Shown here: one piece after another, positions 13,401 to 52,021 of the stretch
How the letters are laid out: every line of letters starts with the position of its first letter
How positions within the stretch are numbered: position 1 is the first letter of the stretch
Assembly: GCA_030641665.1 (NCBI GenBank)
Contig: DAOWHA010000038.1
Coordinates: 23,857-87,856, forward strand
Source of the DNA: a bacterium
GTDB taxonomy: Bacteria > Patescibacteriota > Patescibacteriia > JAACEG01
Reading direction: 5' to 3'
DNA: 64,000 bases
Program-made: the position numbers and the translations under genes
Notes under the pieces: generated by a model
What the model saw: the letters and a program-made list of their open reading frames with translations, nothing else
Told to the model about the DNA's origin: nothing
The model's database searches: none

Positions 13401-13439
13401 AAAACAAGCCCGGACAGCGGCAAAAAAGATAATGAATAA
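10416..13439 (+). CDS. Large secreted multidomain surface protein (lamin-tail domain, Cys-rich repeat, SdrD-B-like repeats, Fn3-like module, acidic tail, C-terminal TM)
   Basis: Signal peptide (ASASE). LTD-like NEIMPDPS...GEWFEVYN. Cys-rich repeat CGDEILEENEKCDDGNNQNGDGCSSDC. About five repeats of YGYKFNDL(D/N)KDG...GW.IELYD...GYY.F. Fn3-like TNKPATSRVVYG...TYYFRTIS. E/D-rich tail then a hydrophobic anchor. Confidence 0.7.
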   Translation: MKNRLIKGGKKVLQCFLILLVIFPLNLMITPSASASELPPQPQAGEVIINEIMPDPSVVSDSNGEWFEVYNNTDHQVNLINCIIKDDGSDLHTINLDLIIDSNDYAVLTKNSTSTENGGIISNYTYTGITLANEEDELILICNDTEIDRVEYNKDSGWVIKVGESMILSDFNFDNNITANWCLSTSSYGDGDLGTPGITNDQCEYNPVCGDEILEENEKCDDGNNQNGDGCSSDCQIESIYGYKFNDLNKDGIMGEGEPMLGGWVIELYDNASSTIPTTTITTSIANSTLGFYSFQNLEAGGYVIKEVQQDGWLQTTPTTSTTTIKLESPTATTTVNFGNWEYKTISGYKYYDSDRDGVMGGGEIGISGWTITLTNSSTTATTTTDTEGYYEFNNLDIGDYTITEIMLDNWHRTDLFASSTPTTTPIEYHIEYSATTTSTSTINFGNWQTEIYGYKFNDLDKNGEFDDGEEKMAGWEIELYNAANATSSIDKTTTDAEGNYIFKGHPFGDYWVKEFQQDGWMQTNLASTTATTTISTATITAEVNFGNWEYKIISGYKYNDLDRDGEWDISESGIGDWMIKLYDNASSTNPILINSTATDTATTSTTTLGCYEFNELEPGVYMITEVMRENWMTGVESAPTTTPIEHNIIITATSTTPTSTADINFYNWQYDCVDNDDDGYYSNESDIECGEKDCDDNNADINPLAKEICGNSIDENCDGKIESCGGGGGHSNFLTIHSEKLVETKSKIEDETEFATETITWHTNKPATSRVVYGTLSVADIGEWPNLGYQYSTTEDLNKITFHEVVISGLLPNTTYYFRTISAASPAIYGKELFFTTPQLSEPQEIEDEQEDEPEDDKGEIEEEGEKGEDEAGDSVEGADESSQEKTDGGGIIGEGAQAAAVVVLGEKLALVDDLPDDILDEDSEKDEAEEDEKEQGIVGGEKIIATTSADSEDGGYDCWSEWWWLIILLLLIIAYFAYENYRIKEESRESEDIKTSPDSGKKDNE

Positions 13440-22476: not shown

Positions 22477-22869
22477 ATTTTAAGGATTAAGTTATCCACA
22501 GGTTTTCTCTTGACTTATTTTTATTTATAATTATTATAATTATTATAGTATAGTGTTCATTTGTTAAGATTCATTATTATTAAAAATTATGAATATGAAG
22601 ATAAATGGAAACGCCACAATTAAAATTATTATAAATAAAGTTAGAAAAAAATCTGCGCTATAATTTTTAGTGTAGATTTTTTTGTTCTTTTAAAAAAGCA
22701 AAGGAAGGCTACCGTTCCTCTTACTGTTTTTTAAAAAATGGAATTTATCCTTTAGGATTTTATTCACAGCCGTTGGTTCCATAGTCCCGCAGGGCTGTGG
22801 AACCTAAATGCAAGATAAAATTTTAAAGGGTGAATTTCAAATTCAAAAAAAATAAAAAGGAGGGGAAAA

Positions 22870-23046
22870 GTGGCAGAAAAAAAAGAAAAAAATAGAGACA
22901 AAAAATTACCGCCGAAACATATGGGCGATTTAGAAAAAAGCAAGCCTCAAATTCCCCTAGAGGGAATATGGACTGATGAGCAAGAGGAGAAGTTGTTTCG
23001 GCAGACCAATAGTGATTTGCCAAAATCAGCGTCTCTAAGTTATTAA
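22870..23046 (+). CDS. Minigene cassette 1 (58 aa, GTG start) of the tandem small-protein array
   Basis: Preceded by AAAAGGAGGGGAAAAGTG; followed by the GAGGCAAATC...GATTTGCCTC hairpin. Confidence 0.3.
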   Translation: MAEKKEKNRDKKLPPKHMGDLEKSKPQIPLEGIWTDEQEEKLFRQTNSDLPKSASLSY

Positions 23047-23055
23047 ACTTCAGTT

Positions 23056-23084
23056 GAGGCAAATCACAGAAAGCGATTTGCCTC
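23056..23084 (+). terminator. Recurring palindromic hairpin (terminator-like) of the minigene array
   Basis: GAGGCAAATCACAGAAAGCGATTTGCCTC; near-identical hairpins at 23428, 23937 and 25684. Confidence 0.5.
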
Positions 23085-23207
23085 AGCCAGCCCTTTTAAA
23101 ATTATTCAGTTTGAATTTTCTTTATCACTTTCTGGTTTTAAAAAATCAGGGAATGAAAATAGAGGATTTAAAAAAATAAAATTTAAACCCTAAAAAAGGA
23201 GGAAAAA

Positions 23208-23417
23208 ATGAAAAGAACAAAAAAATGCCCTAATTGCGGGGCAGAGATGACTGAAGTGGAAGAAACGGGATTTTTATGGGACACATGCGTGAAAAACTGC
23301 CAAGGGGATTTTAAAGTCCTTGTGTCCCCTAGGACAAATGAAAAAACAGCAATTTTTAATTTTACAGAGGCTGTAAAAGAAGCTATATCCAAACTTGAAG
23401 CGTTGGGATATACATAA
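23208..23417 (+). CDS. Minigene cassette 2: small zinc-ribbon protein (CPNCG...C..NC)
   Basis: SD AAAAAGGAGGAAAAAATG; CxxCG ... CxxNC; followed by the conserved hairpin. Confidence 0.5.
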   Translation: MKRTKKCPNCGAEMTEVEETGFLWDTCVKNCQGDFKVLVSPRTNEKTAIFNFTEAVKEAISKLEALGYT

Positions 23418-23581
23418 AAAAGCAACTGAGGCAAATCGCCTTTCCGCGATTTGCCTCAGCCAACCCTTTTAAAATTATTCAGTTTGAATTTTCTTTATCA
23501 CGCTCTGATTTTAAAAAATCAGGGAATGAAAATAGAGGATTTAAAAAAATAAAATTTAAACCCTAAAAAAGGAGGGAAAAA

Positions 23582-23701
23582 ATTGTCAAAAAAACAAAAA
23601 GGAAAGAAAGAAGAGGAAGAAGAAGAAAAGAAATTTAACGAAAAAATAAAATGGATAAACGAAAGATACTTAATGTGGGCAAAAAACGGAAATAATGTTT
23701 A
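23582..23701 (+). CDS. Minigene cassette 3 (39 aa, TTG start, K/E-rich)
   Basis: SD AAAAAGGAGGGAAAAAATTG. The whole 23418-23580 upstream spacer is a near-duplicate of 23050-23207. Confidence 0.3.
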
Positions 23702-23790
23702 ATTTAATTTGTTGGGGTGAAACGAAACAGTTTTGCCCCAACCCAACCTTTTAATTTATAATTATAAATTAAAAAAAAGTAGGGGGGAAA

Positions 23791-23919
23791 ATGTCAGAAG
23801 AAAAAAAAGAATATTGTCCGCAATGCGGAAGAGAGCTAAAAGAGATAAAGGGGTTTGCGAAAGAGTCTGTTGTAAAGCCGATCAAGGCTTGTCCCAGAGG
23901 TTGCGTATCACAGAGATAG
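23791..23919 (+). CDS. Minigene cassette 4: 42-aa zinc-ribbon protein (CPQCG...CPRGC)
   Basis: SD-like GTAGGGGGGAAAATG; CxxC pair; followed by the hairpin at 23937-23962. Confidence 0.4.
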   Translation: MSEEKKEYCPQCGRELKEIKGFAKESVVKPIKACPRGCVSQR

Positions 23920-24141
23920 ATATTCAAAATACGGTTGAGGTAAGGCAAAAATGTTTTGCCTCAGCCAACTAACCTTTAAAATTTATAATTATTATCTTAG
24001 TTTTCAATAGATTTTTTTATAAAGATCTATAATAAAGGTCGATGAAAACAAAAACTAAGTTTTAATAAATTTTATTTATTAAAAGATTTTTAAAAGATTA
24101 AATGATTAATTTTAATCTTTATAAAATCGCCACTTAATTTT

Positions 24142-25038
24142 ATGAAAAAGAGAATTTTATTAAGTTTGGCTCTTGTGGCTGCGGTGGCTGTAGGAGCAAT
24201 GGGCTTAGTAGCTTTTGAAGCTCATGTCATTAATGTAACGGCTAAAATTGAGAATGCTTTAGCTGTTGACACAGAACATATTGATTTTGGAACAGTTTTT
24301 CCGCAGGAGTTTATTAAAGAAAATTTGACTATCGCTTTAAGCAGTTCATTTTTAGCAGAAGACAGGGTTGATGATGTTAATTATGTTATTAAGCAGAAGC
24401 CAAAAGTAAGGCCAAGCGATCAAAATCCAGATGGAGATCCTTATGCAATGATCTATCCTGACCCACAAAATCCAAACGAAGGAATTGTTGCTCATGAATA
24501 TTGTTTAGAGGAGGGTCCTGTTGACGCAGACGATCCGAATGATCCTTATTATATCCATTGCTACCCAATTTTATGTCCTTATTTGTCAAAGCACAAGCAT
24601 ATTGACGACCATACTATGTTAACAGATAGGTGTGATTCTGCATATCCTTATGACTGCGAAGTAGACGCTTTTCATGAAACATCTGTAATAGCGACTGGTC
24701 ATTTAGTTCAATCAGTTAACGACATAACAGATAAATGGGTTATTGATTTAGCAGTTCCTTGTTTTGACGGACAATGCGACCAGACTTACGATGAATGGGT
24801 TTGGGGCATCAATCCTGATGTTGTGAATCCATGGGATTGGACATTGCCGGCAAGTTTAGAAAGCCAAACTTTTGGCTGTGATTTATGGATTGAAGTTACT
24901 GGAATTAGCGCGAATACTGGCACTTGTAGTGATGGTCTTGACAATGATCAAGATGGTTATATTGATTATCCAGAAGATCCTGATTGTATAGATCCTTATG
25001 ATAATGAGGATGTGCCTAATGATCCCCCTCTTACTTAG
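24142..25038 (+). CDS. Secreted Cys-rich protein with TasA/camelysin-like N-terminal module (putative SipW-cognate)
   Basis: Signal anchor then AFEAHVINVTAKIENALAVDTEHIDFGTVFPQEF. The module is shared with ORFs 25782, 26728 and 29091, and resembles the TasA N-terminus (AFND...NL.PGD..F.L.N.G). Confidence 0.5.
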   Translation: MKKRILLSLALVAAVAVGAMGLVAFEAHVINVTAKIENALAVDTEHIDFGTVFPQEFIKENLTIALSSSFLAEDRVDDVNYVIKQKPKVRPSDQNPDGDPYAMIYPDPQNPNEGIVAHEYCLEEGPVDADDPNDPYYIHCYPILCPYLSKHKHIDDHTMLTDRCDSAYPYDCEVDAFHETSVIATGHLVQSVNDITDKWVIDLAVPCFDGQCDQTYDEWVWGINPDVVNPWDWTLPASLESQTFGCDLWIEVTGISANTGTCSDGLDNDQDGYIDYPEDPDCIDPYDNEDVPNDPPLT

Positions 25039-25141
25039 TAATTTTAATCCCTTAATGCATCCTTTCCCCAGTTTTTTAAACTGGGGAGGGGGAGATTAGA
25101 GGAGTAAAAACCGAAAAACAAAAACAAAAAAGGAGGAAAAA

Positions 25142-25321
25142 ATGGCGGGAAAAGAAGTTTGTCCCATTTGCGGGGCGGAAAAAACGAAAAAGATGGATGC
25201 GCTCGGTCGCGAGTGGCTGAAATGCCCGAAATGTGATGGCGGAGTTTATGTCTTTCCCCGCGTCTTTCCAAAAAAAGACAGGGACGAGATTAAGGCAAAT
25301 CATCTTCATGGGCTCGCGTAG
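25142..25321 (+). CDS. Minigene cassette 5: 59-aa zinc-ribbon protein (CPICG...CPKCDG)
   Basis: SD AAAAAGGAGGAAAAAATG; two CxxC pairs; too short for the ORF track. Confidence 0.45.
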   Translation: MAGKEVCPICGAEKTKKMDALGREWLKCPKCDGGVYVFPRVFPKKDRDEIKANHLHGLA

Positions 25322-25349
25322 AGCGAATTTTAAAAAAAGGAGGAAAAAA

Positions 25350-25676
25350 GTGAGCAATTTTAAAAGAACAGTCAAAAAGGTAGCGAAAGAGCAAGGAAAA
25401 AAAGAAAAATGTCCCAATTGCGGGACAGAAATGAAAGAAGTTAGCCTTTTTGGCAACACATGGAACGCATGTCCAGATTGCGAAAAAGAAGTATTGTTTT
25501 TCTCAAATGGAGAAAACAAAGAAAAACAGCGCTGCAAGATTTGCGGGGAATTCACAAAAGAAAAAAGAGAAGACGATAGATTGCCAATAGTATGCCGGCA
25601 ATGCAAAAATGATATCGCGGCGCTACAGAAAAGATTAAAACCGCGGCAACCCCCTTTCTTAAGAATAATTGCTTAA
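25350..25676 (+). CDS. Minigene cassette 6: 108-aa double zinc-ribbon protein (GTG start)
   Basis: SD AAAAAAAGGAGGAAAAAAGTG; CPNCG/CPDC/CKICG/CRQC. The ORF-track start at 25233 is likely too far upstream. Followed by the hairpin at 25684-25717. Confidence 0.45.
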   Translation: MSNFKRTVKKVAKEQGKKEKCPNCGTEMKEVSLFGNTWNACPDCEKEVLFFSNGENKEKQRCKICGEFTKEKREDDRLPIVCRQCKNDIAALQKRLKPRQPPFLRIIA

Positions 25677-25781
25677 ACTTCGGTTGAGGCGAATCGCAAA
25701 AAAACGATTTGCCTCAACCAACAACTTATTTTATAAATTCAGCGATAGATATTGATATTTTTAACATTTTAATACAAATAT

Positions 25782-26285
25782 ATGGAGACACAAAACAGAG
25801 AAAACCGAGCAGAGCCATGGCGGCCGTCCAGCGTGGTTGAAAAAGCCGCCGCGGAGCAGAACAATAAGAAACCCAAAAGAACAACTTTAAAAAGAATAAT
25901 TTGGGCGATTATCGGCGTTTTAATTTTTATAATAATCGTTCAGGTTGCCATAGCGGATAAATACAGCGCGCAGGTTTTAGTCATAGAAGGCGAGAAAAAA
26001 GTCGGGGTCAATCCTACGGACGAGCGGCTGGATTTCGGAGATTTGTCAGCAGATACATCTGCTACTCGGTATGTCACCTTGAACGCCGGCGGGATTGACA
26101 CTTTTATATTTGTTTTAAAGTTCGGATCAATCGCGGAATTAGTCAAACTAAGCGAGAATAATTTTACAATGAAAAAAGGAGATGAAAAGAAATTGGAATT
26201 CAGTTTGTATATGCCTGTGTCAGCGCCGATCGGAGAAAAGTACACTGGCTTCGTCTGGATTTTTAAACTGCCGAAAGCATGGTAA
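25782..26285 (+). CDS. TasA/camelysin-like membrane-anchored protein directly upstream of sipW
   Basis: N-terminal TM, then LDFGDLSADTSATRYVTLNAGGIDTF, similar to TasA (NL.PGD...F.L.N.GSLD); overlaps sipW by 7 nt. Confidence 0.45.
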   Translation: METQNRENRAEPWRPSSVVEKAAAEQNNKKPKRTTLKRIIWAIIGVLIFIIIVQVAIADKYSAQVLVIEGEKKVGVNPTDERLDFGDLSADTSATRYVTLNAGGIDTFIFVLKFGSIAELVKLSENNFTMKKGDEKKLEFSLYMPVSAPIGEKYTGFVWIFKLPKAW

Positions 26286-26707
26286 AAAATAATAAAATAA
26301 TTAAAATAATTTTAGAATGGACAGCTTATATTTTAGTCTTTACTCTGATTGTCTGGGGAACTCCAGCAGCGCTGAAAAAAATATTAGACAGCGAATATCC
26401 GATCGCTTCCATAACATCAAGCTCAATGTGGCCGCAGCTGAAAAAAGGAGACCTGATTTTAATCAAAGGCGTTAGCGGCAAAAATGAGATTGCAGTAGGA
26501 GATATCGTAGTCTACGCGAACGAAAAAGGATTTACCATTCACCGAGTAATTGAATTGAAAGAAGATACTTTTATCACTAAAGGCGACGCTAATAATATAA
26601 AAGACAAGCCGATTAAATATGACAAATTGATCGGAAAAACGCTGAATTTTAGAAACAAGCCGATTAGAATTCCGTTTTTAGGAAAATTATCGCAAATAAA
26701 TATATGA
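26279..26707 (+). CDS. Signal peptidase I, archaeal/ER (SipW/Sec11) type
   Basis: N-terminal TM; catalytic Ser box ITSSSMWPQL (SxSMxP); KGDANN matches the GDNN box of Sec11/SipW-type peptidases; 142 aa. Confidence 0.7.
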   Translation: MVKNNKIIKIILEWTAYILVFTLIVWGTPAALKKILDSEYPIASITSSSMWPQLKKGDLILIKGVSGKNEIAVGDIVVYANEKGFTIHRVIELKEDTFITKGDANNIKDKPIKYDKLIGKTLNFRNKPIRIPFLGKLSQINI

Positions 26708-26727
26708 TTAATATAAATTTTATACCT

Positions 26728-29067
26728 ATGTATAAAATACAAAAGCGAAAAAACAGAATAATTTTTTTCAAAAAGAATCTAACGAGGATGGTTTGCGTCG
26801 TTCTTTTGGCAATGGTTTTTGTTGTTTCGCAAGCGCAGCTATTTAACGCTTTTGAAGCGCATATAATAAATGTTACGGCTAAAATCGTTAATGATGTTCC
26901 AAATATTGATCCGCCGAGCGGGGAGTTTTGCAACGACGGCAGCTTAGTTGTAACTTTAAGCGCCACTTTAACCGGAACAACTACGACTATTTATTATACT
27001 ACTGACGGCAGCGATCCGGATTGCCATGCTCCGAACGGCTCATTATATGCAGATCCGTTTCCTTTAACATACAGCGCGACTGTCAAAGCGAGAACCTGCC
27101 ATGAAAGAGACGGGGAATTGCTGCAAAGCGCGATTATGAGCGAAACTTACGATGTTTCAGCCGTGTATTGCGATTCATATTGCGGCGACGGCATAGTTGA
27201 CCCGGGCGAACAATGCGACGACGGAAATTTGATTGACGGCGATGGTTGCAATTCTGATTGTTCAATAGAAGAATGCGGGCCTTGCGACGGCAAGATAACA
27301 AGTTTAACTATGCAATATAACGGAACTTCAACTGCAGTAATTAAAGTTGTTCAGAAAAGCGACGGAGTTATAGTATTTAATGATGCAGTAAATTCTGGCG
27401 AACAATTCAGTTTTGTCGGGACATGGGGAGTTCATCCTACATTAGGAACAGAAATTACTATTTATATTGATGATGTAGAGAATGTTCAAATCCATACCAG
27501 CTGTTCCGCGCCTGTCGGGCCTGGCATGATTTTCGGTGATTTTTTGATTATTGCCGGCGAAAGCAGAAATGGCGGTCCTTTATGCCCAGGCGTAGTTCTT
27601 AATGAGTTTTTGCCTGATCCTATCGGCGATGACGCGGCTGCTATGCCTAACGGCGAATGGGTTGAATTGTATAATTTGTCCGCTATTTATTCAGTTAATT
27701 TAGCAGGTTATTATTTAACTGACGCCGGAGGCAACAGGATTGATGTTGAGGCCTGTCGCACCAATACAGGCGGTGTTATGATAAGGCCAAATGATTTCTT
27801 GGTAGTTTATCGTAAAGGAGGAGACAGCTGCACCTCGCATAATTTTTCTTTAAATAATGACAATGACACGATTAATTTCTTTGATTATAATGATAATTTA
27901 ACAGATAGCCACAGTTATAGCGGCAGCCATTATGATTCATTAACGCCAACGCCGGGCAATCCTAATTACGATGATTCAGTTGTCGGCAGCGGTAGTGGCG
28001 CGGTGCCAGAAAATAAATCTTACGCCCGCATCCCAGACGGTATAGGCGAATGGGTTGATCCAGTTCCTACTCCCGGCGCGCCAAATATATTAGAAGAATA
28101 CGAGGAAGAAGAACAAGATTTTTCAGCAGGATCAAGTTCGGCTTCAACAGGCGCTTCAGAATCAGGGACATCTCATAGATCGGCCGCGGCAGGATCGCCT
28201 GCGGAAGACTATAGCGAAACAGGAGAAAGCAATCCAGCGGATGACGCAGACGGTCAGACAGCTGATAATTCAGGACAAACCAACGGGGACGAAGCAGAAG
28301 AAGACGAAACCGATGAAGATCAAGGCGGCGGCGCTGATAAAGACGGCGAAGAAGATGGAAATGACAGCGATGGTGATACTGGCGATGATAGCGGTGACAC
28401 AGTTGAAGATGACGGGCAAACCGACGATGCTGGCGATTCGGACGAAACAGGCGATACCGACGATGAGCAAAATGAAGACGATCAAGACGATAATCAAGAT
28501 CAAGACGGCGGAACACAAGGCGAGACAGCAGATGACGGCGCGGATACTGCCAGCGGTCAAGACGGCGGAACAGAAGGCGGCGCAATAGATGACGACGGCG
28601 GAGAAAACTCTGGCGATGACGATGCTGACGGCGGCGATGACGATGCTGACGGTGGCGATGACGCAGTTGAAGATGATGGGCAAACCGATGATGCTGGCGA
28701 TTCGGACGAAACAGGCGATACCGACGGTGAGCAAGATGAAGACGATCAAGGCAGCGGAGCAGATGATGCTGGTGATTCTGGAGACTCGGCTATTGCCAGC
28801 GGGCAAGATAATGGCGCAGATACTGGCGCTGGCGGCGATCAAAATGATCAAGGCAGTGGAACAGATGACTCAGGAGATAGTAATTCAACTGATAGTGATG
28901 ACTCGGGCGATATGGGCGGAGACGCTGGCAGCGGCGCAGATAATCCAGACACAGCAGGCGATGCCGGCGGCGGGCAAGATACTGGCGGTGATAGTTCCGC
29001 GGCTGATGTTAGTAATCCGGCTGATACAGGCGGAGGCGATGATACTGGCGGTCAGCCAAACGATTAA
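26728..29067 (+). CDS. Large secreted protein: TasA-like N-terminal module, chitobiase-C/Fn3-like region, Cys-rich repeat, lamin-tail domain, 330-aa D/G/E/T-rich acidic tail
   Basis: KRK n-region plus hydrophobic core then NAFEAHIINVTAKIVN; CGDGIVDPGEQCDDGNLIDGDGCNSDC; LTD VLNEFLPDPIGDD...GEWVELYN; the tail has internal nucleotide repeats. Start could be 26704, 26728 or 26788. Confidence 0.65.
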   Translation: MYKIQKRKNRIIFFKKNLTRMVCVVLLAMVFVVSQAQLFNAFEAHIINVTAKIVNDVPNIDPPSGEFCNDGSLVVTLSATLTGTTTTIYYTTDGSDPDCHAPNGSLYADPFPLTYSATVKARTCHERDGELLQSAIMSETYDVSAVYCDSYCGDGIVDPGEQCDDGNLIDGDGCNSDCSIEECGPCDGKITSLTMQYNGTSTAVIKVVQKSDGVIVFNDAVNSGEQFSFVGTWGVHPTLGTEITIYIDDVENVQIHTSCSAPVGPGMIFGDFLIIAGESRNGGPLCPGVVLNEFLPDPIGDDAAAMPNGEWVELYNLSAIYSVNLAGYYLTDAGGNRIDVEACRTNTGGVMIRPNDFLVVYRKGGDSCTSHNFSLNNDNDTINFFDYNDNLTDSHSYSGSHYDSLTPTPGNPNYDDSVVGSGSGAVPENKSYARIPDGIGEWVDPVPTPGAPNILEEYEEEEQDFSAGSSSASTGASESGTSHRSAAAGSPAEDYSETGESNPADDADGQTADNSGQTNGDEAEEDETDEDQGGGADKDGEEDGNDSDGDTGDDSGDTVEDDGQTDDAGDSDETGDTDDEQNEDDQDDNQDQDGGTQGETADDGADTASGQDGGTEGGAIDDDGGENSGDDDADGGDDDADGGDDAVEDDGQTDDAGDSDETGDTDGEQDEDDQGSGADDAGDSGDSAIASGQDNGADTGAGGDQNDQGSGTDDSGDSNSTDSDDSGDMGGDAGSGADNPDTAGDAGGGQDTGGDSSAADVSNPADTGGGDDTGGQPND

Positions 29068-29090
29068 ACAATTATTGAATAAATATATTT

Positions 29091-31745
29091 ATGAATTTAC
29101 ATAAAAACAAAAATCAGATAAATTTTATAAAGCCGAAGAGGAAATTTTGTCGTGAGTGGACAAAATATGTTCGTATTTTTGTTTTTGCGTTTTTTATATT
29201 AGCAACCGTTATTTCATTGCAAGGCATTATGGTTAATGTTTTGGCAAATATTGAAAATTTGAGATTCACAATTAGCCATCTTGATTTTGGCTTGCGCTTT
29301 CCAGGCGAAGAAACTGATAAATATTTTACTGTTGAATTTGTAGATTCAGGAAATCCTGATAATTATTCTATCTCCACTCATCCAAAGCCGCTGCTTGAAG
29401 AAGATAAAGAACATTGCCGCAATAACCCGGCAGATTATGAAAAATGCTACCGCGATTTATGCGATCATCTTACGATTTCAAGCATGGATTCTGATACTCC
29501 ATTAGATATTTTAACAGACGCATGGGTAGGCGAAGACGACAGAATAGATACTTGGCAGGTGCATTTAAGAACGCCAGCTATAGCAGGCATGGTCGCGCAG
29601 GAGCATGGCTATGGCGTAGTTGATTCTTCCGGCGACTTTGGCTGCGATATTGCCATTGAGATTGAGGGTGATGATTATTCTTCAATTTCTGGCTGTAAAT
29701 ATAATGATGTTAATAATAACGGCATAATTGATCAAGACGAGGACACAATAAATGGCTGGGAGATACAGTTGATAGGATGCCCATACCTGCCTTCAGGAGA
29801 GCTTTTGCCAATTAGCTATTTAGACAGTTTAGGTTCAGGCGATCCAGGCGCTTGCTCATTAATAGCCACAACAACTACCAGCAACGGCTGCTATGAGTTT
29901 GCCGGTTTAGATTCAGGTAATTACGGAGTAGCTGAAGTTCAGCGGGAAAATTGGTTACAGACCTTGCCTGCTGGCCAAACTTTCTACTACTTTAACCTTC
30001 CAGCAGGAGAAGCGACCACTACTATTGATTTTGCCAACCATTATACAGAAGAAACAGGATCAATTTGCGGCATTAAATTTTATGATTATAATTTAGACGG
30101 CGAAATGAATGGCGAAGATTACGGGCTTTATAGCTGGACAATTAATCTGTTTGAAAAACAGGAGACAGAACAATTAGTTGACATAGTAACGGTTTATGCC
30201 ATAGATGGCGCTGCCACAACCTCTAATATTGTTTTAAATAACGGCGATAATTATCGCATTGAAGCAAGCGGCGCTTATTTTGCCGGAGGCGAGAACCCTG
30301 AGGATATTGAGGCTGACGCTAAATATTCGCAGGATGATTATCAAGCCAGCAGCAGTTTGCCTTGGACTGATTCAGTAAGAGGTTATGAAAGCGAAGGCAC
30401 GATTTTATTGAATTTATTAGTAGACGGGGCAGAAGTTGATTGGGGCGATTATTCAGCAGATCATATTTATTCTATCAATATGGCAGGTTCCAGCAGCACA
30501 GTTGAATTTTTAATTTATGACATATATTATCCAAATAATACAGGAAGTTTAACAGTTAAAATTTATAAGATAGTTGAGCAGACTGTTTTAGTTGATCATA
30601 GAATAACAGATTCAGATCCGGCAGGACATTATTGCTTTACAGATATAGAAGCGGGAAATTATATATTGGGAGAAGTTTTAGAAGATGATGAAGGCTGGAC
30701 GGCAACAGCGCCAATTAATCCGCCGTATTATGAATTTACTATAAATCAAGGAGATCAGCTTATCTATAATTTTGGCAATTATAAGCCGGGACAAGGCGGA
30801 CCTGATACTTATTGCGGCGACGGCATTAAACAAAGCCCGAATGACGCTTTGCTTGGCGGTCCTAATAATGACGGTTATGAAGCATGCGATGGCAGCGATG
30901 GCGTGCCAAGCGGAAAATCCTGCACTATTGATTGTAAATTAAGCGGCGGCGGAGGCGGTGGCGGTGGCGGAGGCGAGACTTATCTGACAGTGCATGACGA
31001 GCAAGTATCATGCATATCAGAAACTTCTGTTCTTGTTAGTTGGCGGACCAATAAATACGCGACAAGCCGCGTGGTTTATGACACAAAATCGCATCCATCA
31101 ACTGGCTTGCCGCCAAATTACGGTTACGCAAGCTCCACTGCCGAAAGCGCTGATAAAGTGACAATTCATTCAATGACTATTGAGAATTTAGGCGGAAATA
31201 TTCTTTATTACTTTAAACCGATTTCCAGCGCTTCTCCTGAAGTTCTTGGTAAGGAATTATCATTTAATATGGCAGACTGCTGCGGTCCGATTGTCTTGGG
31301 CGAAGAAGGCGCGCCCGAGTTGACAATTAGCAAGACAGTTAATAAGGATTTTGCGAATTCTGGCGACACCGTTATCTATAAAGTGAATATAGCAAATATC
31401 GGCAATATGGCGGCTTATAATACAGTGCTAACCGATACTTTGCCGGCAGAATTTGCCTTTATTGACGGAGGCGGAACTTTAAAGACATGGCAGCTTGGAG
31501 ATATTGAGCCGGGACAGGAAAAAATTACGGAATATGAAGTTTCTATCAGCGCGACTGCGGCAACTGGAATATACGCTAATATAGCGCAAGCCAGCGCAGA
31601 CAACCACGAACCTATCAGCGCTTCTGTTGATGTGAGTATTGAATTGGCGGCAACCGGTTTTAGTGTAAAAGAACTTATGATTTTGATTTTAGCGCTTGTA
31701 GCGCTGTCTGCCTCCGCGATAATATTAAGGAGAAAGTATTTGTGA
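29091..31745 (+). CDS. Large cell-wall-anchored surface protein (sortase substrate, LAATG sorting signal)
   Basis: N-terminal anchor then VNVLANIENLRF...HLDFGLRFPGEE; SdrD-B-like repeats; Gly10 linker; Fn3-like SWRTNKYATSRVVYD...YYFKPIS; DUF11-like repeat. C-terminus is LAATG, then a hydrophobic stretch, then RRKYL. Confidence 0.7.
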   Translation: MNLHKNKNQINFIKPKRKFCREWTKYVRIFVFAFFILATVISLQGIMVNVLANIENLRFTISHLDFGLRFPGEETDKYFTVEFVDSGNPDNYSISTHPKPLLEEDKEHCRNNPADYEKCYRDLCDHLTISSMDSDTPLDILTDAWVGEDDRIDTWQVHLRTPAIAGMVAQEHGYGVVDSSGDFGCDIAIEIEGDDYSSISGCKYNDVNNNGIIDQDEDTINGWEIQLIGCPYLPSGELLPISYLDSLGSGDPGACSLIATTTTSNGCYEFAGLDSGNYGVAEVQRENWLQTLPAGQTFYYFNLPAGEATTTIDFANHYTEETGSICGIKFYDYNLDGEMNGEDYGLYSWTINLFEKQETEQLVDIVTVYAIDGAATTSNIVLNNGDNYRIEASGAYFAGGENPEDIEADAKYSQDDYQASSSLPWTDSVRGYESEGTILLNLLVDGAEVDWGDYSADHIYSINMAGSSSTVEFLIYDIYYPNNTGSLTVKIYKIVEQTVLVDHRITDSDPAGHYCFTDIEAGNYILGEVLEDDEGWTATAPINPPYYEFTINQGDQLIYNFGNYKPGQGGPDTYCGDGIKQSPNDALLGGPNNDGYEACDGSDGVPSGKSCTIDCKLSGGGGGGGGGGETYLTVHDEQVSCISETSVLVSWRTNKYATSRVVYDTKSHPSTGLPPNYGYASSTAESADKVTIHSMTIENLGGNILYYFKPISSASPEVLGKELSFNMADCCGPIVLGEEGAPELTISKTVNKDFANSGDTVIYKVNIANIGNMAAYNTVLTDTLPAEFAFIDGGGTLKTWQLGDIEPGQEKITEYEVSISATAATGIYANIAQASADNHEPISASVDVSIELAATGFSVKELMILILALVALSASAIILRRKYL

Positions 31746-31751
31746 TAATCT

Positions 31752-32468
31752 ATGTTTCAAATAAATAAAAAAAGGTTAATAAAAACTCTAGTTTTTACGC
31801 TAGAGTTTTTAATTATCGGCATTATAGTTTATTTAATAGCTTTGCCGTTTTATCCAGCAGTAAAATATAGGTTATCGCAACAAGGCGAACCTTCGAGCAT
31901 TGACTGGCAGGATTTTGAAACCGTAAAGCAAAAAACAGGCGAAATTATAAAAAGCGAACCTTTTGTTTTAGAAAATGGACAAAATAATCAAGAAAAACAA
32001 GTTGAAAAAGAAGTTGATTTGCCGCAGGTCCAGCCAGCCGTCGCTTATCCTGCATCACAGGCAGAATATAATAACCGCGTAATTATCGCTAAAATCGGCG
32101 TAAATGCGCCGATTATTGATTCGTCTAATGAAGATTGGGCGCTGTCGCATGGCGCTTGGCGGATACCGGGAAGTTCCTCGCCTGACAAAGCAGGCAATAC
32201 CGTGATTACCGGGCACCGCTTTAAATATTTGCCTCCGAGCAATCTGACTTTTTATCTGTTTCATAAGCTTGAGATAGGGGATATTATCTTGGCGGTTTGG
32301 GAGCAAAAAAAATATTATTATAAGATAAATGAGATAAAAATAGTTAGTCCGCGCGACTTGTCAATTTTAGAGAAAACAGAAAAGCCGACCTTAACTCTGT
32401 TCACTTGCGATCCGATTTATTCGCAAAAAAATCGGCTAGTGATAATAGCGGAACTGATTGAGGATTGA
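31752..32468 (+). CDS. Sortase (transpeptidase)
   Basis: N-terminal TM, catalytic His region VITGHR, Cys motif PTLTLFTCD, conserved Arg downstream; immediately follows the LAATG substrate. Confidence 0.8.
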   Translation: MFQINKKRLIKTLVFTLEFLIIGIIVYLIALPFYPAVKYRLSQQGEPSSIDWQDFETVKQKTGEIIKSEPFVLENGQNNQEKQVEKEVDLPQVQPAVAYPASQAEYNNRVIIAKIGVNAPIIDSSNEDWALSHGAWRIPGSSSPDKAGNTVITGHRFKYLPPSNLTFYLFHKLEIGDIILAVWEQKKYYYKINEIKIVSPRDLSILEKTEKPTLTLFTCDPIYSQKNRLVIIAELIED

Positions 32469-33024: not shown

Positions 33025-33216
33025 AAGCGGCATGCCTCTTCAAAGAAATTTATTAAAACTTTGGTAATTCTTTTTTAAAGAAATGCCAAAGTTTATTTTT
33101 ATCTGTAAATTACAGCACTAAAGAAAGGAAAGGAGGTGATGAGAGATTAGTTTTCCTTGACAATCATTTTTTTCATTTTTCTTACATTAAAAAGAAAACC
33201 GAAAAGGAGAGATCTC

Positions 33217-36200
33217 ATGAGAAAGTTTATCGTTTGGCTTATAATTGTTTGTTTTTTTGGCGCAGGTCAAGGTATGCCTGCATTGGCAAATGTTGATTTT
33301 TCAGATGAATTTATCGATTTACGAAAGCCTTTGGCTTTCAGTATAGATAAAGGACCTAGCAATCCCTTTATAGTTCAAGAGGACTTTTTCAGGTTAAGGC
33401 AGGAAATCACAGAAGCCAGAGCAATGGAATTAATGCTAGCGCTAAGTGAAGAATACACGTATTCTGCTGGCAATGAGATCATTAATGAAGAGATTCGTAA
33501 TTTTTCCTTTATAACTCTAAAGTATGATCCTGTTGAAATTTTTGACTATGTTTACAAGATTGAGACAGAATTCTATTATGGACTACGTAATAGTTCAATT
33601 AAAACCCTTCATGCTAATAGAGCAAGTCCTTGGGAGAAATGCGTTCTTTTGCACGATCTTCTAATTGTAGCTGGCTATGATGTCTTTCTTGAAGAAGTCA
33701 TCATGACACTAACCGGCGAAGAGATGATGAGCTGGACAGGGGCTGAAAGTCCCTATGCAGCTGGTCTGATGTTGGGCAAGAGATACATTCCAATCATTCC
33801 TTTAAACGAGCATTTTAGTGACTTTATAGTTATGCAACCTAGGGTATCCGTACATAATATGTACGGAGATGGCCGAACCATCACCTTGGATCCGTCATAT
33901 AAAAGCCATGAACGGACAGAGGGGTACAGCGCGGAAATAGAGGTAGGCGAGAAGACAAGGTCTATTTTTAGCTCAGTAGATTCAAAAGAGTCTATTTTGC
34001 TTGATCCTGATTTAGTTAGAAATGCTTTAAAAGAACAAGAAAGTATTTTTAACAATACTGTGGGAAATTTGACTCCGAAAGAATTTTTCGGGTCAAGAGA
34101 AATTAATCAGTATTACCCCACAGAAAAAGAAAGAGGGGTAGATTTGGATCGATGGAAAGTTGTAAGACAATTTTCATCACTGCCGGAAGAACTAATGGCA
34201 AAGATAGAAATAACGATGTCAGGCGGTGAATTTTTCCAGTGCTCACTTTCTGAACTAACAGAAGAACTCTCAATAACCTATATTGAAAGTTCCGAAGAAG
34301 GATATCTGCCTGTTTTAAAACTCGGCGCGGAGATTGTGGCAACAGGGACTTCTGCTGGCTTAAACGAGACTCAAAACATTAGAGTCGGATTTTTTGAACC
34401 AGGTAAAAAAGGCTGGGAATATTCGGAGATAAAATTAATTGCTGGCGAGGATAAACATGTTTTTACTCCGGGTATTCAACAGAATGAGAAAGACCTGTGG
34501 CAAGAAGCTGAAAAATTAAAATCTTTAGTTGATGATCTTGACCCAGATCAGGAAATGCCTGATGAAGCAAAATTAAAAATTCTCAGCCTTACAGGGAAAA
34601 TGTATTGTTTTCTCTCGGGAAAATCTATTCAGAATTTGGCTAAAATGGCCAAGATAGACAATGTGGACGCTTTATCATTGGTCTTGACATCTTGGACAAA
34701 CGAAGGTGTTGAGATAAATGTAGTTAGAGATCCCTCAATGGCAGTTTCGCTACAAGAAACCCAGGACAATGACAAAGAGGCTGAAGTAAAGAGTTGGTTT
34801 GTAATAAAAGCTACTATCTGCAGCTTATATGAAAGCTTAACTCTTCAATCTTTGTTTAAAACAAAAGCTTTTTCCACTGCAAGCTGTTTTGCTGAAGCAA
34901 TGGAACAGGGAATTTCCGTGGTTATTTTGGAAAACACGGAAGACCTTGGAAAATTTTCCGCAAAGAATGAAATAAGAAACGCTATAAGGCGTTATCTAGA
35001 ACAAGGGTTTATAATTGCAATCCTTGAGCGCCCAATCACAACCGGACAGGCATGGATAGTGATGGATAAGGAGATGAAGTCCATTACCTTCCAAATTGAG
35101 AGTGATTATGGAATTATTAATGGAGGCAAAACAGGCGCAATAGAATATTCTCCTTCAAAAGCATGGTTTATCGGAGTAGCTGCGCTTGAGCTTGCAGATG
35201 CTATAATAGTATCTGTCAGCATGGTTTTGGCCGGAGGAGTTAAAGCCGGAGTAGGTTATCAAATCATGGTCGCCGGCCATGCAACAGAATTGGCATTCTT
35301 AACTCTGCCTTTTGGTATAGGCGGTGTCGTAGTTGGAACCGTCTTTATGTGCGCAGCAGTTGTTGTTGGGCACAAATTGTTGGGTAATGTTCATCACATA
35401 GTAGATGAGCATCTGCTCAACGAGATAAACGATGACTTTAACGACTTGAATATCACGGATGACGTTATAGATGACGAAGTAACCGAGGACTCGAATATCC
35501 CGGATGACGAATCAGACATTCCGAATATCTCGGATGATAATTATCATTCAGAGTACATGGAAATGGTTCACGCGAACAGTCCGGATAATTCGGAGTTCTT
35601 TAAGAATTTAGACGACTTAGAGAGTTCGGGCTTTTGGGATGAGTATTATCCTAACTGGAAGGACTTTGGCATCTGGGATGGAGTACAAGGAACATGGGAC
35701 GGTGCCGGCTTTAGTGTAGACAGGGAAATTGAACGGGGATTGGATGTCCGAGAAAGCAATCTGAACGGCGCTCTGAACGGCGTCCCGACAATCTTGATCG
35801 GCGGCTCGGACAGCATCTTTGACAGCGGCTCGGACAACTTAGATAGCTCTGACGTCGGCTTAGACACTAGCCCTAGCCCGACCGACAACTCGGACGGTAA
35901 CTCTAACATTCTGGATGACGATTTGGACAGTAGCTCGGACAACGATTTGATCGGTGGCTCGGGCAACGGCTCGGACAACAGTAGCCTTGACAGTGGCTTT
36001 GACAGCTGGTACGGCGAATGGAACAGTGATATGGACGGCTCGGGCAACGAGCCAGGCAGCTCGGACGGCGGCATAATCGAGACCTTGTACGGCAGCCAAG
36101 ACAAGATTGATTATGTATACATCACCGAACCCAAGGGCAATCCAGAGACCACTACCGGCGGCAACTGGATTTTGGATAGAGGTATGGGCGGTAGCATGGA

Positions 36201-36225
36201 CATTTGGGGCTTGTACGGTCGTTGA
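33217..36225 (+). CDS. Large transglutaminase-like (Cys-His-Asp) membrane protein with S/D/G-rich acidic C-terminal tail
   Basis: Signal peptide. ASPWEKCVLLHDLLIVAGYDVFL matches the TGase-core Cys region; HNMYGDGRTITLDPS matches the His...Asp region. Two TM helices near residues 650-720. Low-complexity DSGSDN tail. Start taken at ATG 33217 (SD AAGGAGA). Confidence 0.45.
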   Translation: MRKFIVWLIIVCFFGAGQGMPALANVDFSDEFIDLRKPLAFSIDKGPSNPFIVQEDFFRLRQEITEARAMELMLALSEEYTYSAGNEIINEEIRNFSFITLKYDPVEIFDYVYKIETEFYYGLRNSSIKTLHANRASPWEKCVLLHDLLIVAGYDVFLEEVIMTLTGEEMMSWTGAESPYAAGLMLGKRYIPIIPLNEHFSDFIVMQPRVSVHNMYGDGRTITLDPSYKSHERTEGYSAEIEVGEKTRSIFSSVDSKESILLDPDLVRNALKEQESIFNNTVGNLTPKEFFGSREINQYYPTEKERGVDLDRWKVVRQFSSLPEELMAKIEITMSGGEFFQCSLSELTEELSITYIESSEEGYLPVLKLGAEIVATGTSAGLNETQNIRVGFFEPGKKGWEYSEIKLIAGEDKHVFTPGIQQNEKDLWQEAEKLKSLVDDLDPDQEMPDEAKLKILSLTGKMYCFLSGKSIQNLAKMAKIDNVDALSLVLTSWTNEGVEINVVRDPSMAVSLQETQDNDKEAEVKSWFVIKATICSLYESLTLQSLFKTKAFSTASCFAEAMEQGISVVILENTEDLGKFSAKNEIRNAIRRYLEQGFIIAILERPITTGQAWIVMDKEMKSITFQIESDYGIINGGKTGAIEYSPSKAWFIGVAALELADAIIVSVSMVLAGGVKAGVGYQIMVAGHATELAFLTLPFGIGGVVVGTVFMCAAVVVGHKLLGNVHHIVDEHLLNEINDDFNDLNITDDVIDDEVTEDSNIPDDESDIPNISDDNYHSEYMEMVHANSPDNSEFFKNLDDLESSGFWDEYYPNWKDFGIWDGVQGTWDGAGFSVDREIERGLDVRESNLNGALNGVPTILIGGSDSIFDSGSDNLDSSDVGLDTSPSPTDNSDGNSNILDDDLDSSSDNDLIGGSGNGSDNSSLDSGFDSWYGEWNSDMDGSGNEPGSSDGGIIETLYGSQDKIDYVYITEPKGNPETTTGGNWILDRGMGGSMDIWGLYGR

Positions 36226-37286: not shown

Positions 37287-38708
37287 ATGAAATTTTTTAA
37301 AAAAATAAAAAATGGTTTTAAAAAATATTTTTTAGTTTTGCGGGAATTTTTTGCTAAATTGCCTTTTTTTAAATTTGGCAAAAAAAACGGAAAAAAAATT
37401 TATGGCAATTTTAAAGATTTTTTAGATGAGGAAAAAGAGGAAATAGAAGAACTGGCAAGCGGAAAAGAGGGGCTTAAAAGATTTTGCTGCGATTCAGGGT
37501 CTATTTTTAAAGAATATTTCATACCGACCGAAGAAAACGGGCATAGGCCGAAAATTTTAAGAGCTAAATCCTTAGTGATTATCGCCGCGGTTTTAGTTAT
37601 TGTTAAAATGTCAGTGACCGGCTATCTGTTTTTCATTTATCCGAATCAGGCGAAAATGTCAGAACTGATTACCAAGAATATTTTAGAATTAATTAATGTT
37701 GACAGAAAAAGCAATGGAATAAGCGAACTGACAAATAATTCTGTTTTAAACGAAGCGGCTCTCAGTAAGGCGAAAGATATGGTTGAGAAAGGCTATTTTG
37801 CGCACAAAAGCCCTGATGGCCGCATGTCTTGGGATTTTATTAATAGATCGGAATACGCTTATCTGTTCGTTGGCGAGAATTTAGCAATGAATTTTACTTC
37901 AGCGCAATCGGCGCATAAAGCCCTGATGCTTTCAGAAACGCATAAAAAAAATATTTTAAGCGGCAAGTATTCAGATGTCGGACTGGCTATATTAACAGGA
38001 GTTATAGACGGAAGGAAGACTAATGTTTTAGTGCAGATTTTTGGCAGCGCGAATAACACAAAATTAGCAATGGTCTCAGCCGCTGATGATCAGACAGTTA
38101 AAAGCGAATCGCCGGCTGAAAGCGAAATAATTGAAAATCCGACAGTTGAAAAGATAGTTGCAGTTAAACAGGAAATATCAGCAGAAAATCCGCAAATTGA
38201 AGTCAAGGAGGCAAGCGCAGTTAAAGAAGAAATAAAAAAAACAGAGGAGGGGAAAAAGATAGAAGAAACTAAAGAAATAGGAGAAACAAAAAAGACAGAA
38301 GCGATAAAAGATATAGAAAAAACAGAAAAGCCAGCCGTTCAAACTCCTGCTGAAAAAATTATAGCAAAAGTAAGGGCTGCCTCTGCGTTAAGCGTTAAGC
38401 CTAAAGTAGATAATATTGATTTTAGCGGAATGAATGCCAGTTTGGCAGGCAAAGTTAAATCTTTTAATATAGAAGCTGAAAAAGAGATAACTATGGCAGA
38501 AAGCATTATAAAAATGTCGCGCTATACTTTCTTTATCGCTTTGGTAATAATCGCTGTCTCTTTACTGATTAATATATTTATTAAATTCAGAATTCAGCAC
38601 AAGCCGCTGATTATAGAAAGTATTTTGGCGATGATTTTTATAATCAGCTTAATCTATATAAAAACAAATTTTTTAGAGTATGTTTTAGAAAAAGTTTTTG
38701 TAGTTTAG
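37287..38708 (+). CDS. Membrane-anchored CAP/SCP/PR1-like domain protein
   Basis: GYFAHKSPDG...GENLAMNF...HKALMLSETHKKNIL is the CAP-domain signature; N- and C-terminal TM segments; K/E-rich linker. Confidence 0.6.
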   Translation: MKFFKKIKNGFKKYFLVLREFFAKLPFFKFGKKNGKKIYGNFKDFLDEEKEEIEELASGKEGLKRFCCDSGSIFKEYFIPTEENGHRPKILRAKSLVIIAAVLVIVKMSVTGYLFFIYPNQAKMSELITKNILELINVDRKSNGISELTNNSVLNEAALSKAKDMVEKGYFAHKSPDGRMSWDFINRSEYAYLFVGENLAMNFTSAQSAHKALMLSETHKKNILSGKYSDVGLAILTGVIDGRKTNVLVQIFGSANNTKLAMVSAADDQTVKSESPAESEIIENPTVEKIVAVKQEISAENPQIEVKEASAVKEEIKKTEEGKKIEETKEIGETKKTEAIKDIEKTEKPAVQTPAEKIIAKVRAASALSVKPKVDNIDFSGMNASLAGKVKSFNIEAEKEITMAESIIKMSRYTFFIALVIIAVSLLINIFIKFRIQHKPLIIESILAMIFIISLIYIKTNFLEYVLEKVFVV

Positions 38709-51945: not shown

Positions 51946-52021
51946 TGGTTGGGGTGGGGGGATTTGAACCTCCGACTATTCGGTTATACCCAAATACTCT
52001 ACCATGCTGAGTTACACCCCG
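51946..52021 (-). tRNA. tRNA (76 nt, CCA encoded) with C1xA72 mismatch and an unusual 6-nt or 8-nt anticodon loop; identity unresolved
   Basis: Reverse complement: CGGGGTG...D-arm ACTC-AGCATGGTA-GAGT...TTTGG-GTATAA-CCGAA...GGAGG-TTCAAAT-CCCCC-CACCCCA-A-CCA. Confidence 0.5.

Follow-up and report, generated by a model that had tools for sequence, protein, structure and literature searches.

A putative surface-protein maturation and assembly module centred on an archaeal-type signal peptidase in bacteria of the Candidate Phyla Radiation

The 64-kb stretch of contig DAOWHA010000038.1 that was analysed here (the window) is a chromosomal piece of a bacterium of the Candidate Phyla Radiation (CPR), with genes for DnaB, RecA and FtsK, and it carries a small signal peptidase gene set among genes for secreted proteins. 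We propose, with a probability of about 0.55, that these genes form a surface maturation and assembly module conserved in CPR bacteria and in some Chloroflexota, in which the peptidase matures proteins that share an N-terminal tag (the cassette) into an anchored fibre or adhesin. The neighbours of the peptidase behave as its cognate substrates: they carry a near-invariant cassette at the signal-peptide junction, and their gene order is kept in about 30 loci. An earlier note on this DNA had read the locus as a maturation system of the tasA-sipW type; the operon logic, the cognate neighbours and the recurring order speak for that idea, and the part that fell is the assignment of the substrates to the TasA family. 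The small subunit, the accessory protein and the peptidase of the window are 100% identical to proteins from a metagenome-assembled genome labelled 'Candidatus Parcubacteria bacterium'.

The signal peptidase and its gene neighbourhood

Judged from its sequence, the peptidase is a predicted signal-peptide-removing enzyme in a minimal form, with 142 residues and one transmembrane (TM) segment. The hydrophobic N-terminal segment (aa 6-36), the SSSMWP box (aa 47-52) and the GDANN box (aa 102-106) that the earlier note had pointed out are all present. The protein scores 87.1 bits on TIGR02228, the model of archaeal-type signal peptidase I (cutoff 51.85, E=1.1e-24), stays below the cutoff of the LepB-type model TIGR02227 (44.7 bits against 47), and obtains 47.1 bits on the Bacillus SipW equivalog model NF046067, where the cutoff is 190. 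It is thus a member of the broad family that also includes Bacillus SipW, as far as its sequence tells, and not a SipW orthologue. A sequence search of the PDB matched only human SEC11A and SEC11C (E about 7e-7), with SSSMWP, IHRV and TKGDANNIKD aligned to SGSMEP, VHRV and TKGDNNEVDD, such that Ser, His and Asp coincide. An alignment of 35 relatives shows no variation at Ser49, His88, Arg89, Asp103 or Asp109, and in both comparisons His rather than Lys occupies the position of the general base. The suggested SipW/Sec11 nature of the enzyme (S26B, Ser/His) is therefore confirmed, and it does not group with LepB.

The gene overlaps that flank the peptidase are also as described in the earlier note (7 nt with the upstream and 4 nt with the downstream gene), except that the start given there for the downstream gene, 26728, is an internal Met of open reading frame (ORF) 26704. 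The spacings from 25782 to 32468 (-7, -4, +23 and +6 nt) indicate that the five genes probably form one operon; a promoter and terminator scan, otherwise uninformative, found no strong terminator on the + strand inside this interval.

Scanning the genome collection with a peptidase profile gave 79 loci: 34 of CPR type, 44 of the SipW type from Firmicutes (or other Bacteria) and one from Archaea. The six-frame ORFs of all loci, with flanks of ±10 kb, were scored with the window proteins and with a profile of the family of ORF 24142 (the A1 family, described below). About 30 loci share a recurring order, in which one to four A1 genes are followed by the accessory gene, the peptidase, a gene for cassette-bearing cargo and often an anchor with a divergent A1 domain. 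These syntenic loci come from Parcubacteria, Wildermuth-, Doudna-, Azam- and Buchananbacteria, Chloroflexota and others; a few of the 34 CPR-type loci are labelled Chloroflexota or Coriobacteriia, and the labels of some metagenome-assembled genomes ('uncultured Gammaproteobacteria' or 'Saccharibacteria' binchicken bins) are probably unreliable. Among loci with enough flank, the accessory gene lies directly upstream of the peptidase in 25 out of 27, the two apparent absences being overlaps in ORF calling with the gene visible in both. On the same basis, A1 genes are found upstream in 20 out of 21 loci, a cassette protein directly downstream in 21 out of 32 by profile (and in one more by pattern alone), and a sortase within 10 kb downstream in 4 out of 18.

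The downstream cassette-only cargo of related loci includes chitobiase-like, SdrD-like and 'GFWK'-type domains, among others. The proteins with a divergent A1 domain end in LPXTG-like signals (LAATG in the window, LPPTG in L001, LPRTG in L019, LDATG in L012) or in C-terminal TM anchors (L005, L009 and L027). None of the 45 Firmicute and archaeal SipW-type loci encodes the cassette or the A1 domain (0/45), and their substrates are of the TyAWFt type. The Ser box reads S[GS]SMWP in all 31 CPR-type peptidases in which it is readable, and SGSMEP in most of the Firmicute SipW-type loci. This private Ser box, together with the absence of the cassette from SipW-type loci, shows that the clade of the enzyme and the tag of its putative substrates co-vary.

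The four loci labelled Chloroflexota (L022, L026, L028 and L030) place the module outside the CPR and have a variant tag, e.g. AFESHMVSITARV in L022. Their peptidases are 165-375 aa long, as compared with about 145 aa elsewhere, a difference that points to fusions or additional C-terminal domains in this lineage. The window also encodes a protein with a CAP/SCP domain (37287-38708, +), and such a protein lies no more than about 10 kb from the module in four related CPR loci (L001 10327-11298, L027 10639-11865, L031 5258-6739 and L002 3-1541); it may be a loosely linked secreted partner.

Table 1. Positions of the module genes, their diagnostic motifs and the adjacent zinc-ribbon ORFs in the window (nucleotide numbering of the window).
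Feature	Length (aa)	Position (nt)	Strand	Basis or remark
Small secreted subunit (A1)	298	24142..25038	+	100% identical to NCBI hypothetical protein KAI52_02550 (Candidatus Parcubacteria bacterium); cassette and A1 domain
Cassette of ORF 24142, FEAHVINVTAKIENAL		24214-24261	+	aa 25-40, after signal peptide aa 1-24
Accessory immunoglobulin-like membrane protein	167	25782..26285	+	TM helix, ASH/MSP/PapD-like sandwich
Predicted archaeal/endoplasmic-reticulum-type signal peptidase I (S26B)	142	26279..26707	+	TIGR02228; Ser/His/Asp
Peptidase Ser49 in SSSMWP		26423-26425	+	aligned with SEC11A/C
Peptidase His88 in IHRV		26540-26542	+	aligned with catalytic His of SEC11A/C
Peptidase Asp103/Asp109 in GDANNIKD			+	aligned with SEC11A/C
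Cassette-only cargo protein	787	26704..29067	+	Pfam domains; A1-profile match aa 30-63
Cassette of ORF 26704, FEAHIINVTAKIVN		26851-26892	+	after signal peptide
Anchor-type protein	884	29091..31745	+	divergent A1-like domain; LAATG sorting signal
LAATG sorting signal of ORF 29091		31644-31658	+	aa 852-856, then hydrophobic stretch and RRKYL
Sortase	238	31752..32468	+	PF04203, TIGR01076; TLFTC
Zinc-ribbon mini-ORF	69	23208-23417		PF13453 E=4e-6
Zinc-ribbon mini-ORF	42	23791-23919		
Zinc-ribbon mini-ORF	59	25142-25321		
Zinc-ribbon ORF, C-terminal part		25233-25676		

The cassette and the proteins of the module

The cassette consists of a signal peptide, an invariant Ala and then [FY]EAH[VI][IV]NVTAxIENAL. 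It takes the form FEAH[VI]INVTAKI in ORFs 24142 and 26704 and the variant form VNVLANIENL in ORF 29091, and occurs nowhere else in the six frames of the window. In 167 non-redundant contexts, position -3 is F, M or L, position -2 is S or A, and position -1 is A in 98%; position 0 is F (82%) or Y (17%), followed by E, A and H (100% each), V or I, I or V, and N (100%), and then by V (99%), T (95%), A (99%), any residue, I (97%), E (90%), N (90%), A (86%), L (87%), any residue and V (85%). No part of the A1 family is better conserved than this segment just past the signal-peptide core, with cassette residues conserved at 90% or more. The large downstream proteins have varied residues at position -2 (N, G, Q, F, Y and others), which excludes it as P1, so that cleavage most likely takes place directly after the invariant Ala and FEAH... 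would become the new N-terminus. The N-terminal peptides of the mature proteins would tell the candidate sites apart (FEAHVINVTAK as against AFEAHVINVTAK). In 23 large proteins (22 from related loci and the window's own) the cassette is kept over about 12-14 residues and the sequences are unrelated beyond it; its fusion to unrelated cargo argues that it is an autonomous module. Its length goes far beyond what recognition by a peptidase needs. An ATCUN-type (amino-terminal copper- and nickel-binding) metal site at the mature N-terminus was considered and dropped, since the His would fall at position 4 or 5 instead of 3 with either of the plausible cleavage sites.

The principal subunit, ORF 24142, has a signal peptide, the cassette, a Cys-containing beta-sandwich of about 215 aa (the A1 domain) and a C-terminal acidic double-disulfide repeat. 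It has at least 1,369 homologues at E<=1e-3, almost all of them unnamed; the named ones are from Parcubacteria, Nealsonbacteria, Woesebacteria and Minisyncoccia. The common region of about 250 aa is covered by no Pfam or NCBIfam model, and a Pfam scan of 50 members gave no recurring family, although many members are extended C-terminally by von Willebrand factor A (vWA), lamin-tail (LTD), beta-helix or SpaA-like domains. Within the window the A1 profile matches, besides its own ORF, the cargo protein ORF 26704 (E=5e-9) and two stretches of the anchor protein ORF 29091 (aa 43-105 and 148-217, E=4e-8), from which we conclude that the latter holds a divergent but complete copy of the domain. There is no further match below E=1, and ORF 25782 is unmatched. 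The module that the earlier note had seen in four ORFs is therefore common to three of them, and its extension to ORF 25782 rested on a generic immunoglobulin (Ig) string.

An AlphaFold2 (AF2) model of ORF 24142, built from a 50-sequence alignment, is confident (predicted local distance difference test, pLDDT, 88; predicted template modelling score, pTM, 0.76) and shows a seven-strand sandwich into which helical, Cys-rich stretches are inserted; the part with the cassette (residues 21-40) has a pLDDT of 52-64, no secondary structure and no defined place. A Foldseek search of the model against the PDB gave no match at E<=0.001; the two best, non-significant matches were the cannula subunit CanX (E=0.022) and the TasA fibre (E=0.039). 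In the fold comparison ASH/MSP/PapD-like Ig folds came out best, and fibre subunits of the TasA superfamily were lower or non-significant. The structure prediction called for in the earlier note thus yielded a confident fold for the shared domain, and the comparison of this fold with TasA is ambiguous.

The C-terminal Cys/Asp repeat of ORF 24142, CSDGLDNDQDGYIDYPEDPDC (aa 260-283, window 24919-24990), matches NF033662 below its cutoff and is present in only about half of the A1 family members. A search of PDB sequences with the A1 profile matched only over this repeat, to the N-terminal plug motif of the YD-shell of animal teneurins (E=0.007).

The N-terminal tail of the accessory protein, ORF 25782, is basic and variable; a single TM helix (aa ~36-57) follows, and then an eight-strand sandwich that is probably an Ig domain of the ASH/MSP/PapD-like (choice-of-anchor-D-type) kind. 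In the AF2 model (pLDDT 83) the first strand begins directly past the TM helix and is folded into its own sandwich. An exhaustive profile search gave 765 cluster representatives (50% identity), most of them 120-200 aa long and laid out alike. In a few giant proteins the domain is matched in 8-17 stretches, which in P0400 are 'LDFGDV...VSNEG' repeats, and this identifies the 'LDFG...N.GG' string as a generic signature of ASH/choice-of-anchor-D-type Ig domains. ORF 25782, which had been listed among the substrates, is thus better seen as an accessory protein. Its invariant adjacency to the peptidase gene and the 7-nt overlap suggest that it works together with the peptidase or as a factor in assembly.

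The cargo protein ORF 26704 combines, in this order, the signal peptide, the cassette, a Pro-rich linker, CHB_HEX_C/Fn3_assoc, DUF4215, DUF7467, a lamin-tail domain and an acidic tail of about 300 aa, and it has neither an A1 domain nor a C-terminal anchor. Its tail (aa ~480-787, window 28000-29067) is rich in Asp, Gly, Glu, Thr, Ser, Ala and Asn, and is encoded by short imperfect tandem repeats with periods of 18, 21 and 27 nt; the local GC content is 0.47, as compared with about 0.36 in the window, and long spurious ORFs arise there in other frames and on the opposite strand. The anchor-type protein ORF 29091 has an N-terminal hydrophobic segment, the divergent A1-like domain (aa ~43-217), a stalk of SdrD_B, Pur_ac_phosph_N-like and DUF11 domains with SdrD_B and SpaA-like folds, and a second hydrophobic segment (aa 852-882). 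The sortase gene starts 6 nt past it; its product has 82 bits on PF04203 (cutoff 26.6, E=4e-23), 66.3 bits on TIGR01076 (cutoff 39.35) and a TLFTC motif, and is below the cutoff of every class-specific sortase model. Substrates far larger than TasA, as the earlier note had described them, are thus found among the cargo and anchor proteins; the principal family is TasA-sized.

Other features of the window lie near these genes. ORF 10416-13439 (+, 1,007 aa) encodes a second large surface protein with LTD, DUF4215, four SdrD_B, SpaA and Pur_ac_phosph_N-like domains; its signal peptide is ordinary (…TPSASA), a TM segment anchors it at the C-terminus, and it has no FEAH cassette, so that not all secreted proteins of the organism use the tag. 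Past the sortase, ORF 33157-36225 (+, 1,022 aa) matches no Pfam family; its product has several hydrophobic stretches and a long tail rich in Ser, Asp and Gly. None of the related loci has a homologue, not even the sister locus L001, in which the corresponding space is about 3.4 kb shorter. The gaps on both sides of ORF 24142 (22500-24140 and 25040-25780) contain tandem mini-cassettes, each made of a long hairpin, an AT-rich stretch, the ribosome-binding site AAAAAGGAGG and a tiny zinc-ribbon ORF (Table 1). The hairpin, with about five copies, has e.g. at 23423-23462 a 17-bp stem with the core GAGGCAAATC...GATTTGCCTC, and a 136-nt direct repeat links 23073-23208 to 23446-23581 (96% identity). 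The mini-cassettes have no homologues in related loci and may have a regulatory role or represent a small mobile or repeat element. Lacking such homologues, ORF 33157-36225 and the zinc-ribbon mini-ORFs were left out of the module. At 51946-52021 (-), ARAGORN reports a tRNA-??? with the anticodon 'at' at position 35, beside a tRNA-Asp; Rfam confirms both tRNAs (42 and 41 bits).

The proposed assembly and its alternatives

The assembly that we propose begins with maturation, a step we regard as well supported: the S26B peptidase, together with the single-pass Ig accessory protein, would process the cassette-marked secreted proteins encoded next to it, with which it is presumably paired. Cleavage after the Ala would put an aromatic residue at P1', which should suit an S26B peptidase better than LepB. 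The exposed cassette would then be an amphipathic beta-strand of 16-17 residues able to dock, or be donated, into the beta-sandwich of an A1 domain. The reasons for seeing a docking strand in it are that it is too long and too well kept on the mature side for a cleavage determinant alone, that its hydrophobic and polar residues alternate as in a beta-strand, and that it persists on proteins without an A1 domain. Such a structure would have 1) a base, formed by an anchor with a divergent A1 domain whose C-terminus is fixed by the sortase (at LAATG in the window) or, in other lineages, by a TM helix; 2) a shaft of one to four small A1 subunits, each with a strand and a domain, which could thus chain into a polymer; and 3) a tip, where cassette-only proteins with adhesin-like cargo could plug into the last free A1 domain. 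The stronger claim that this is a previously undescribed class of surface fibre of the CPR and some Chloroflexota, with ASH/MSP-type Ig subunits, a private peptidase of the endoplasmic reticulum (ER) type, a 'FEAH' strand tag, plug-in tip cargo and an anchored base, is a tentative one, which we hold to be possible rather than probable.

Several observations count against the proposed assembly. Cleavage, strand docking and the filament are themselves predictions. That the cassette is unplaced in the AF2 monomer is weak evidence for the assembly, because an invariant segment gives no covariation signal and because the signal peptide was modelled too. The relation between the accessory and A1 families is unstable in hhalign (80% in one run, 18% in another), and the accessory protein may have any of several roles, namely peptidase partner, chaperone, TapA-like initiator or wall-binding anchor. 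The sparse occurrence of the sortase makes it an optional part. No LepB-type gene is encoded within the 64 kb, which says nothing on the remaining genome.

The last point, along with the small size and some archaeal-like features of CPR genomes, speaks for a reading in which the enzyme is a housekeeping signal peptidase that lies among genes of secreted proteins by chance. Such a reading is very improbable and was rejected: the gene order with the accessory and cassette proteins is kept across phylum-level CPR lineages and Chloroflexota, other secreted proteins of the window, such as ORF 10416-13439, use ordinary signal peptides, and the peptidase clade co-varies with the cassette. We give still less credence to a sortase-polymerised pilus of the Gram-positive type, in which the peptidase homologue would be a non-catalytic chaperone like SipA/LepA. 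SipA is a LepB-type protein without catalytic residues. Streptococcal loci encode this signal-peptidase-like protein, which is needed for pilus polymerisation (PMC4049620), and the window does have a sortase and a LAATG protein in one operon, the latter with SdrD_B and SpaA-like folds. Yet the window enzyme is an S26B peptidase with intact and invariant Ser, His and Asp, the sorting signal is found only in the 884-aa protein and not in the A1 subunits or the 787-aa protein, and the sortase is optional whereas the peptidase, accessory and cassette proteins are constant, which largely rules this reading out.

That the locus is a genuine tasA-sipW system, whose A1 proteins would belong to the TasA/camelysin superfamily as very divergent members and carry a SipW-cognate signal peptide, is improbable. 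The operon logic and the peptidase family are the same, linkage to an S26B peptidase is a trait of the superfamily that the window and about 30 related loci display, the two top Foldseek matches, although non-significant, are CanX and the TasA fibre, and PF12389 homologues have been reported in Patescibacteria and Chloroflexota (PMC9245690). The scans proposed in the earlier note were nonetheless blank: the four N-termini of the window matched neither TIGR04088 (the SipW-cognate signal peptide) nor PF12389 (TasA/camelysin) at E<=10, none of 50 members of the ORF 24142 family matched PF12389 at E<=1, and two other CPR members did not match TIGR04088 at E<=1. These negatives are meaningful since the positive controls were recovered, with three Firmicute SipW-adjacent proteins at 22-32 bits on TIGR04088 (cutoff 19) and E from 1e-7 to 8e-12 on PF12389, and TasA, with its sequence validated by 514 bits on NF046066, at 38 bits and E 2e-37. 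In a profile-profile comparison with a 59-sequence alignment of Firmicute TasA-like proteins built from SipW loci, hhalign aligned only the signal peptide, faAFEA with TyAWFt at 74% probability, leaving the mature domain unaligned. The likeness to the TasA/camelysin N-terminus is hence undetectable past the signal-peptide region, and at the level of sequence the neighbours in the window are not recognisable relatives of TasA. A doubtful but more substantial alternative is that the cassette is a signal for recognition or retention, and that the tagged proteins act singly as adhesins or enzymes with no chaining of subunits; in a variant of this, the cassette might retain proteins by binding the Ig domain of the membrane-anchored accessory protein or the cell wall. 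Its very diverse cargo, including vWA, LTD and beta-helix domains behind A1, is what a general sorting signal would have, the accessory-peptidase pair forms a constant core around which the A1 and cargo genes differ in number, and no known fibre subunit is a significant structural match. However, signal peptidases read few residues at the scissile bond, and a near-invariant strand of 16-17 residues on the mature side suggests binding after cleavage. The co-conserved trio of strand plus domain, strand only, and domain plus anchor is expected of a polar chained assembly, and lone adhesins need none of it; as for the variant, the AF2 model of the accessory protein already has its own first strand in place.

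Known systems and implications for CPR bacteria

The closest parallel in operon logic is tapA-sipW-tasA of Bacillus subtilis, where a gene for an ER/archaeal-type Ser/His peptidase also lies between a small accessory gene and secreted subunits, and where the substrates have a special motif with an aromatic residue beside the cleavage site (a predicted site in our case). Cleavage in Bacillus frees an N-terminal strand that drives donor-strand assembly, to which TapA contributes a strand or an anchor, TasA and TapA both assembling by this logic (PMC9674648, PMC10151520). The aromatic P2' residue of TasA makes it a poor LepB substrate (PMC10269814), which offers a rationale for a dedicated enzyme here too. 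The differences are several: the window substrates match neither PF12389 nor TIGR04088 and have the tag A/[FY]EAHVINVTAxIENAL (the slash marks the cleavage site, a predicted one in this tag) instead of the TasA-type TxA/xF[ST]D; the modelled core of the subunit resembles ASH/MSP domains and has Cys-rich insertions; the peptidase, shorter than SipW, has one TM segment, an SMWP Ser box and a score far under the SipW cutoff; the accessory protein, as compared with TapA, is a type-II membrane Ig protein; and the cassette-only cargo and the sortase-anchored partner are additions. PF12389 homologues do exist in Patescibacteria (PMC9245690), and the A1 family is not among them.

The AbpX, AbpA and Tafi loci of Archaea, Bacillota and Chloroflexota are alike in having major and minor subunits, a tip that shares a donor strand, a TIGR02228 peptidase and an accessory protein with an extracellular beta-sandwich (bioRxiv 10.64898/2026.01.04.697558; PMC9245690), and the AbpX-type loci of the TasA superfamily in Bacteria add LPXTG anchors with sortases; assembly in the TasA/AbpX systems proceeds by donor-strand complementation. 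In that system the accessory protein is a DUF5305 protein with two TM helices and a cytoplasmic domain, as opposed to one TM helix and a probable ASH-type Ig domain, and the linked peptidase has ten TM helices, as opposed to the minimal enzyme of the window; the subunit family described here is not detectably related, by sequence, to the AbpX/TasA superfamily. Patescibacteria, candidate phyla and the FEAH cassette were not found in the available text of the AbpX preprint (bioRxiv 10.64898/2026.01.04.697558). Chaperone-usher and other donor-strand pili offer a further comparison, because the A1 and accessory models resemble Ig sandwiches of the PapD/MSP/ASH type and because the proposed assembly has the same N-terminal extension strand docking into a neighbour and the same division into tip, shaft and base. 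Unlike them, the system has no usher and no outer membrane, and its accessory protein is single-domain and membrane-anchored.

The eukaryotic signal peptidase complex is also informative, given that SEC11A/C are the only relatives of the window peptidase with solved structures. SEC11 needs a single-pass type-II partner with a lumenal beta-sandwich (SPCS3/Spc3). The invariant accessory-peptidase gene pair resembles this arrangement, and a corresponding protein pair is suggested here by gene order. A targeted search through the available literature texts found no description of the CPR module. What is already known is the type of system, a dedicated S26B peptidase with strand-tagged surface subunits; new are the substrate family, the tag, the accessory protein and the taxonomic setting. 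This may be regarded as a second, sequence-independent case of such a system, which bears on the evolution of fibres in monoderm Bacteria and Archaea.

The module is widespread, with its at least 1,369 subunit relatives, about 765 accessory clusters and about 30 syntenic loci, all of which are 'hypothetical' in current annotation. Our analysis provides a name and a testable function for a large family without domain annotation, and the sequence rule, [FY]EAH[VI][IV]NVTA after a signal peptide, offers a simple way to look for surface cargo of uncultured CPR bacteria. Should the tag prove to be a docking strand, a further use as a modular handle for display is conceivable. Those CPR/Patescibacteria that are in cultivation spend their lives attached to other microbial cells, and to our knowledge mainly type IV pili have so far been linked to this attachment. 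If the fibre reading is true, then tagged cargo with LTD, vWA, beta-helix, chitobiase-like or SdrD-like domains could plug into the tip, and these episymbionts might owe much of their attachment to hosts or surfaces to such plug-in display.

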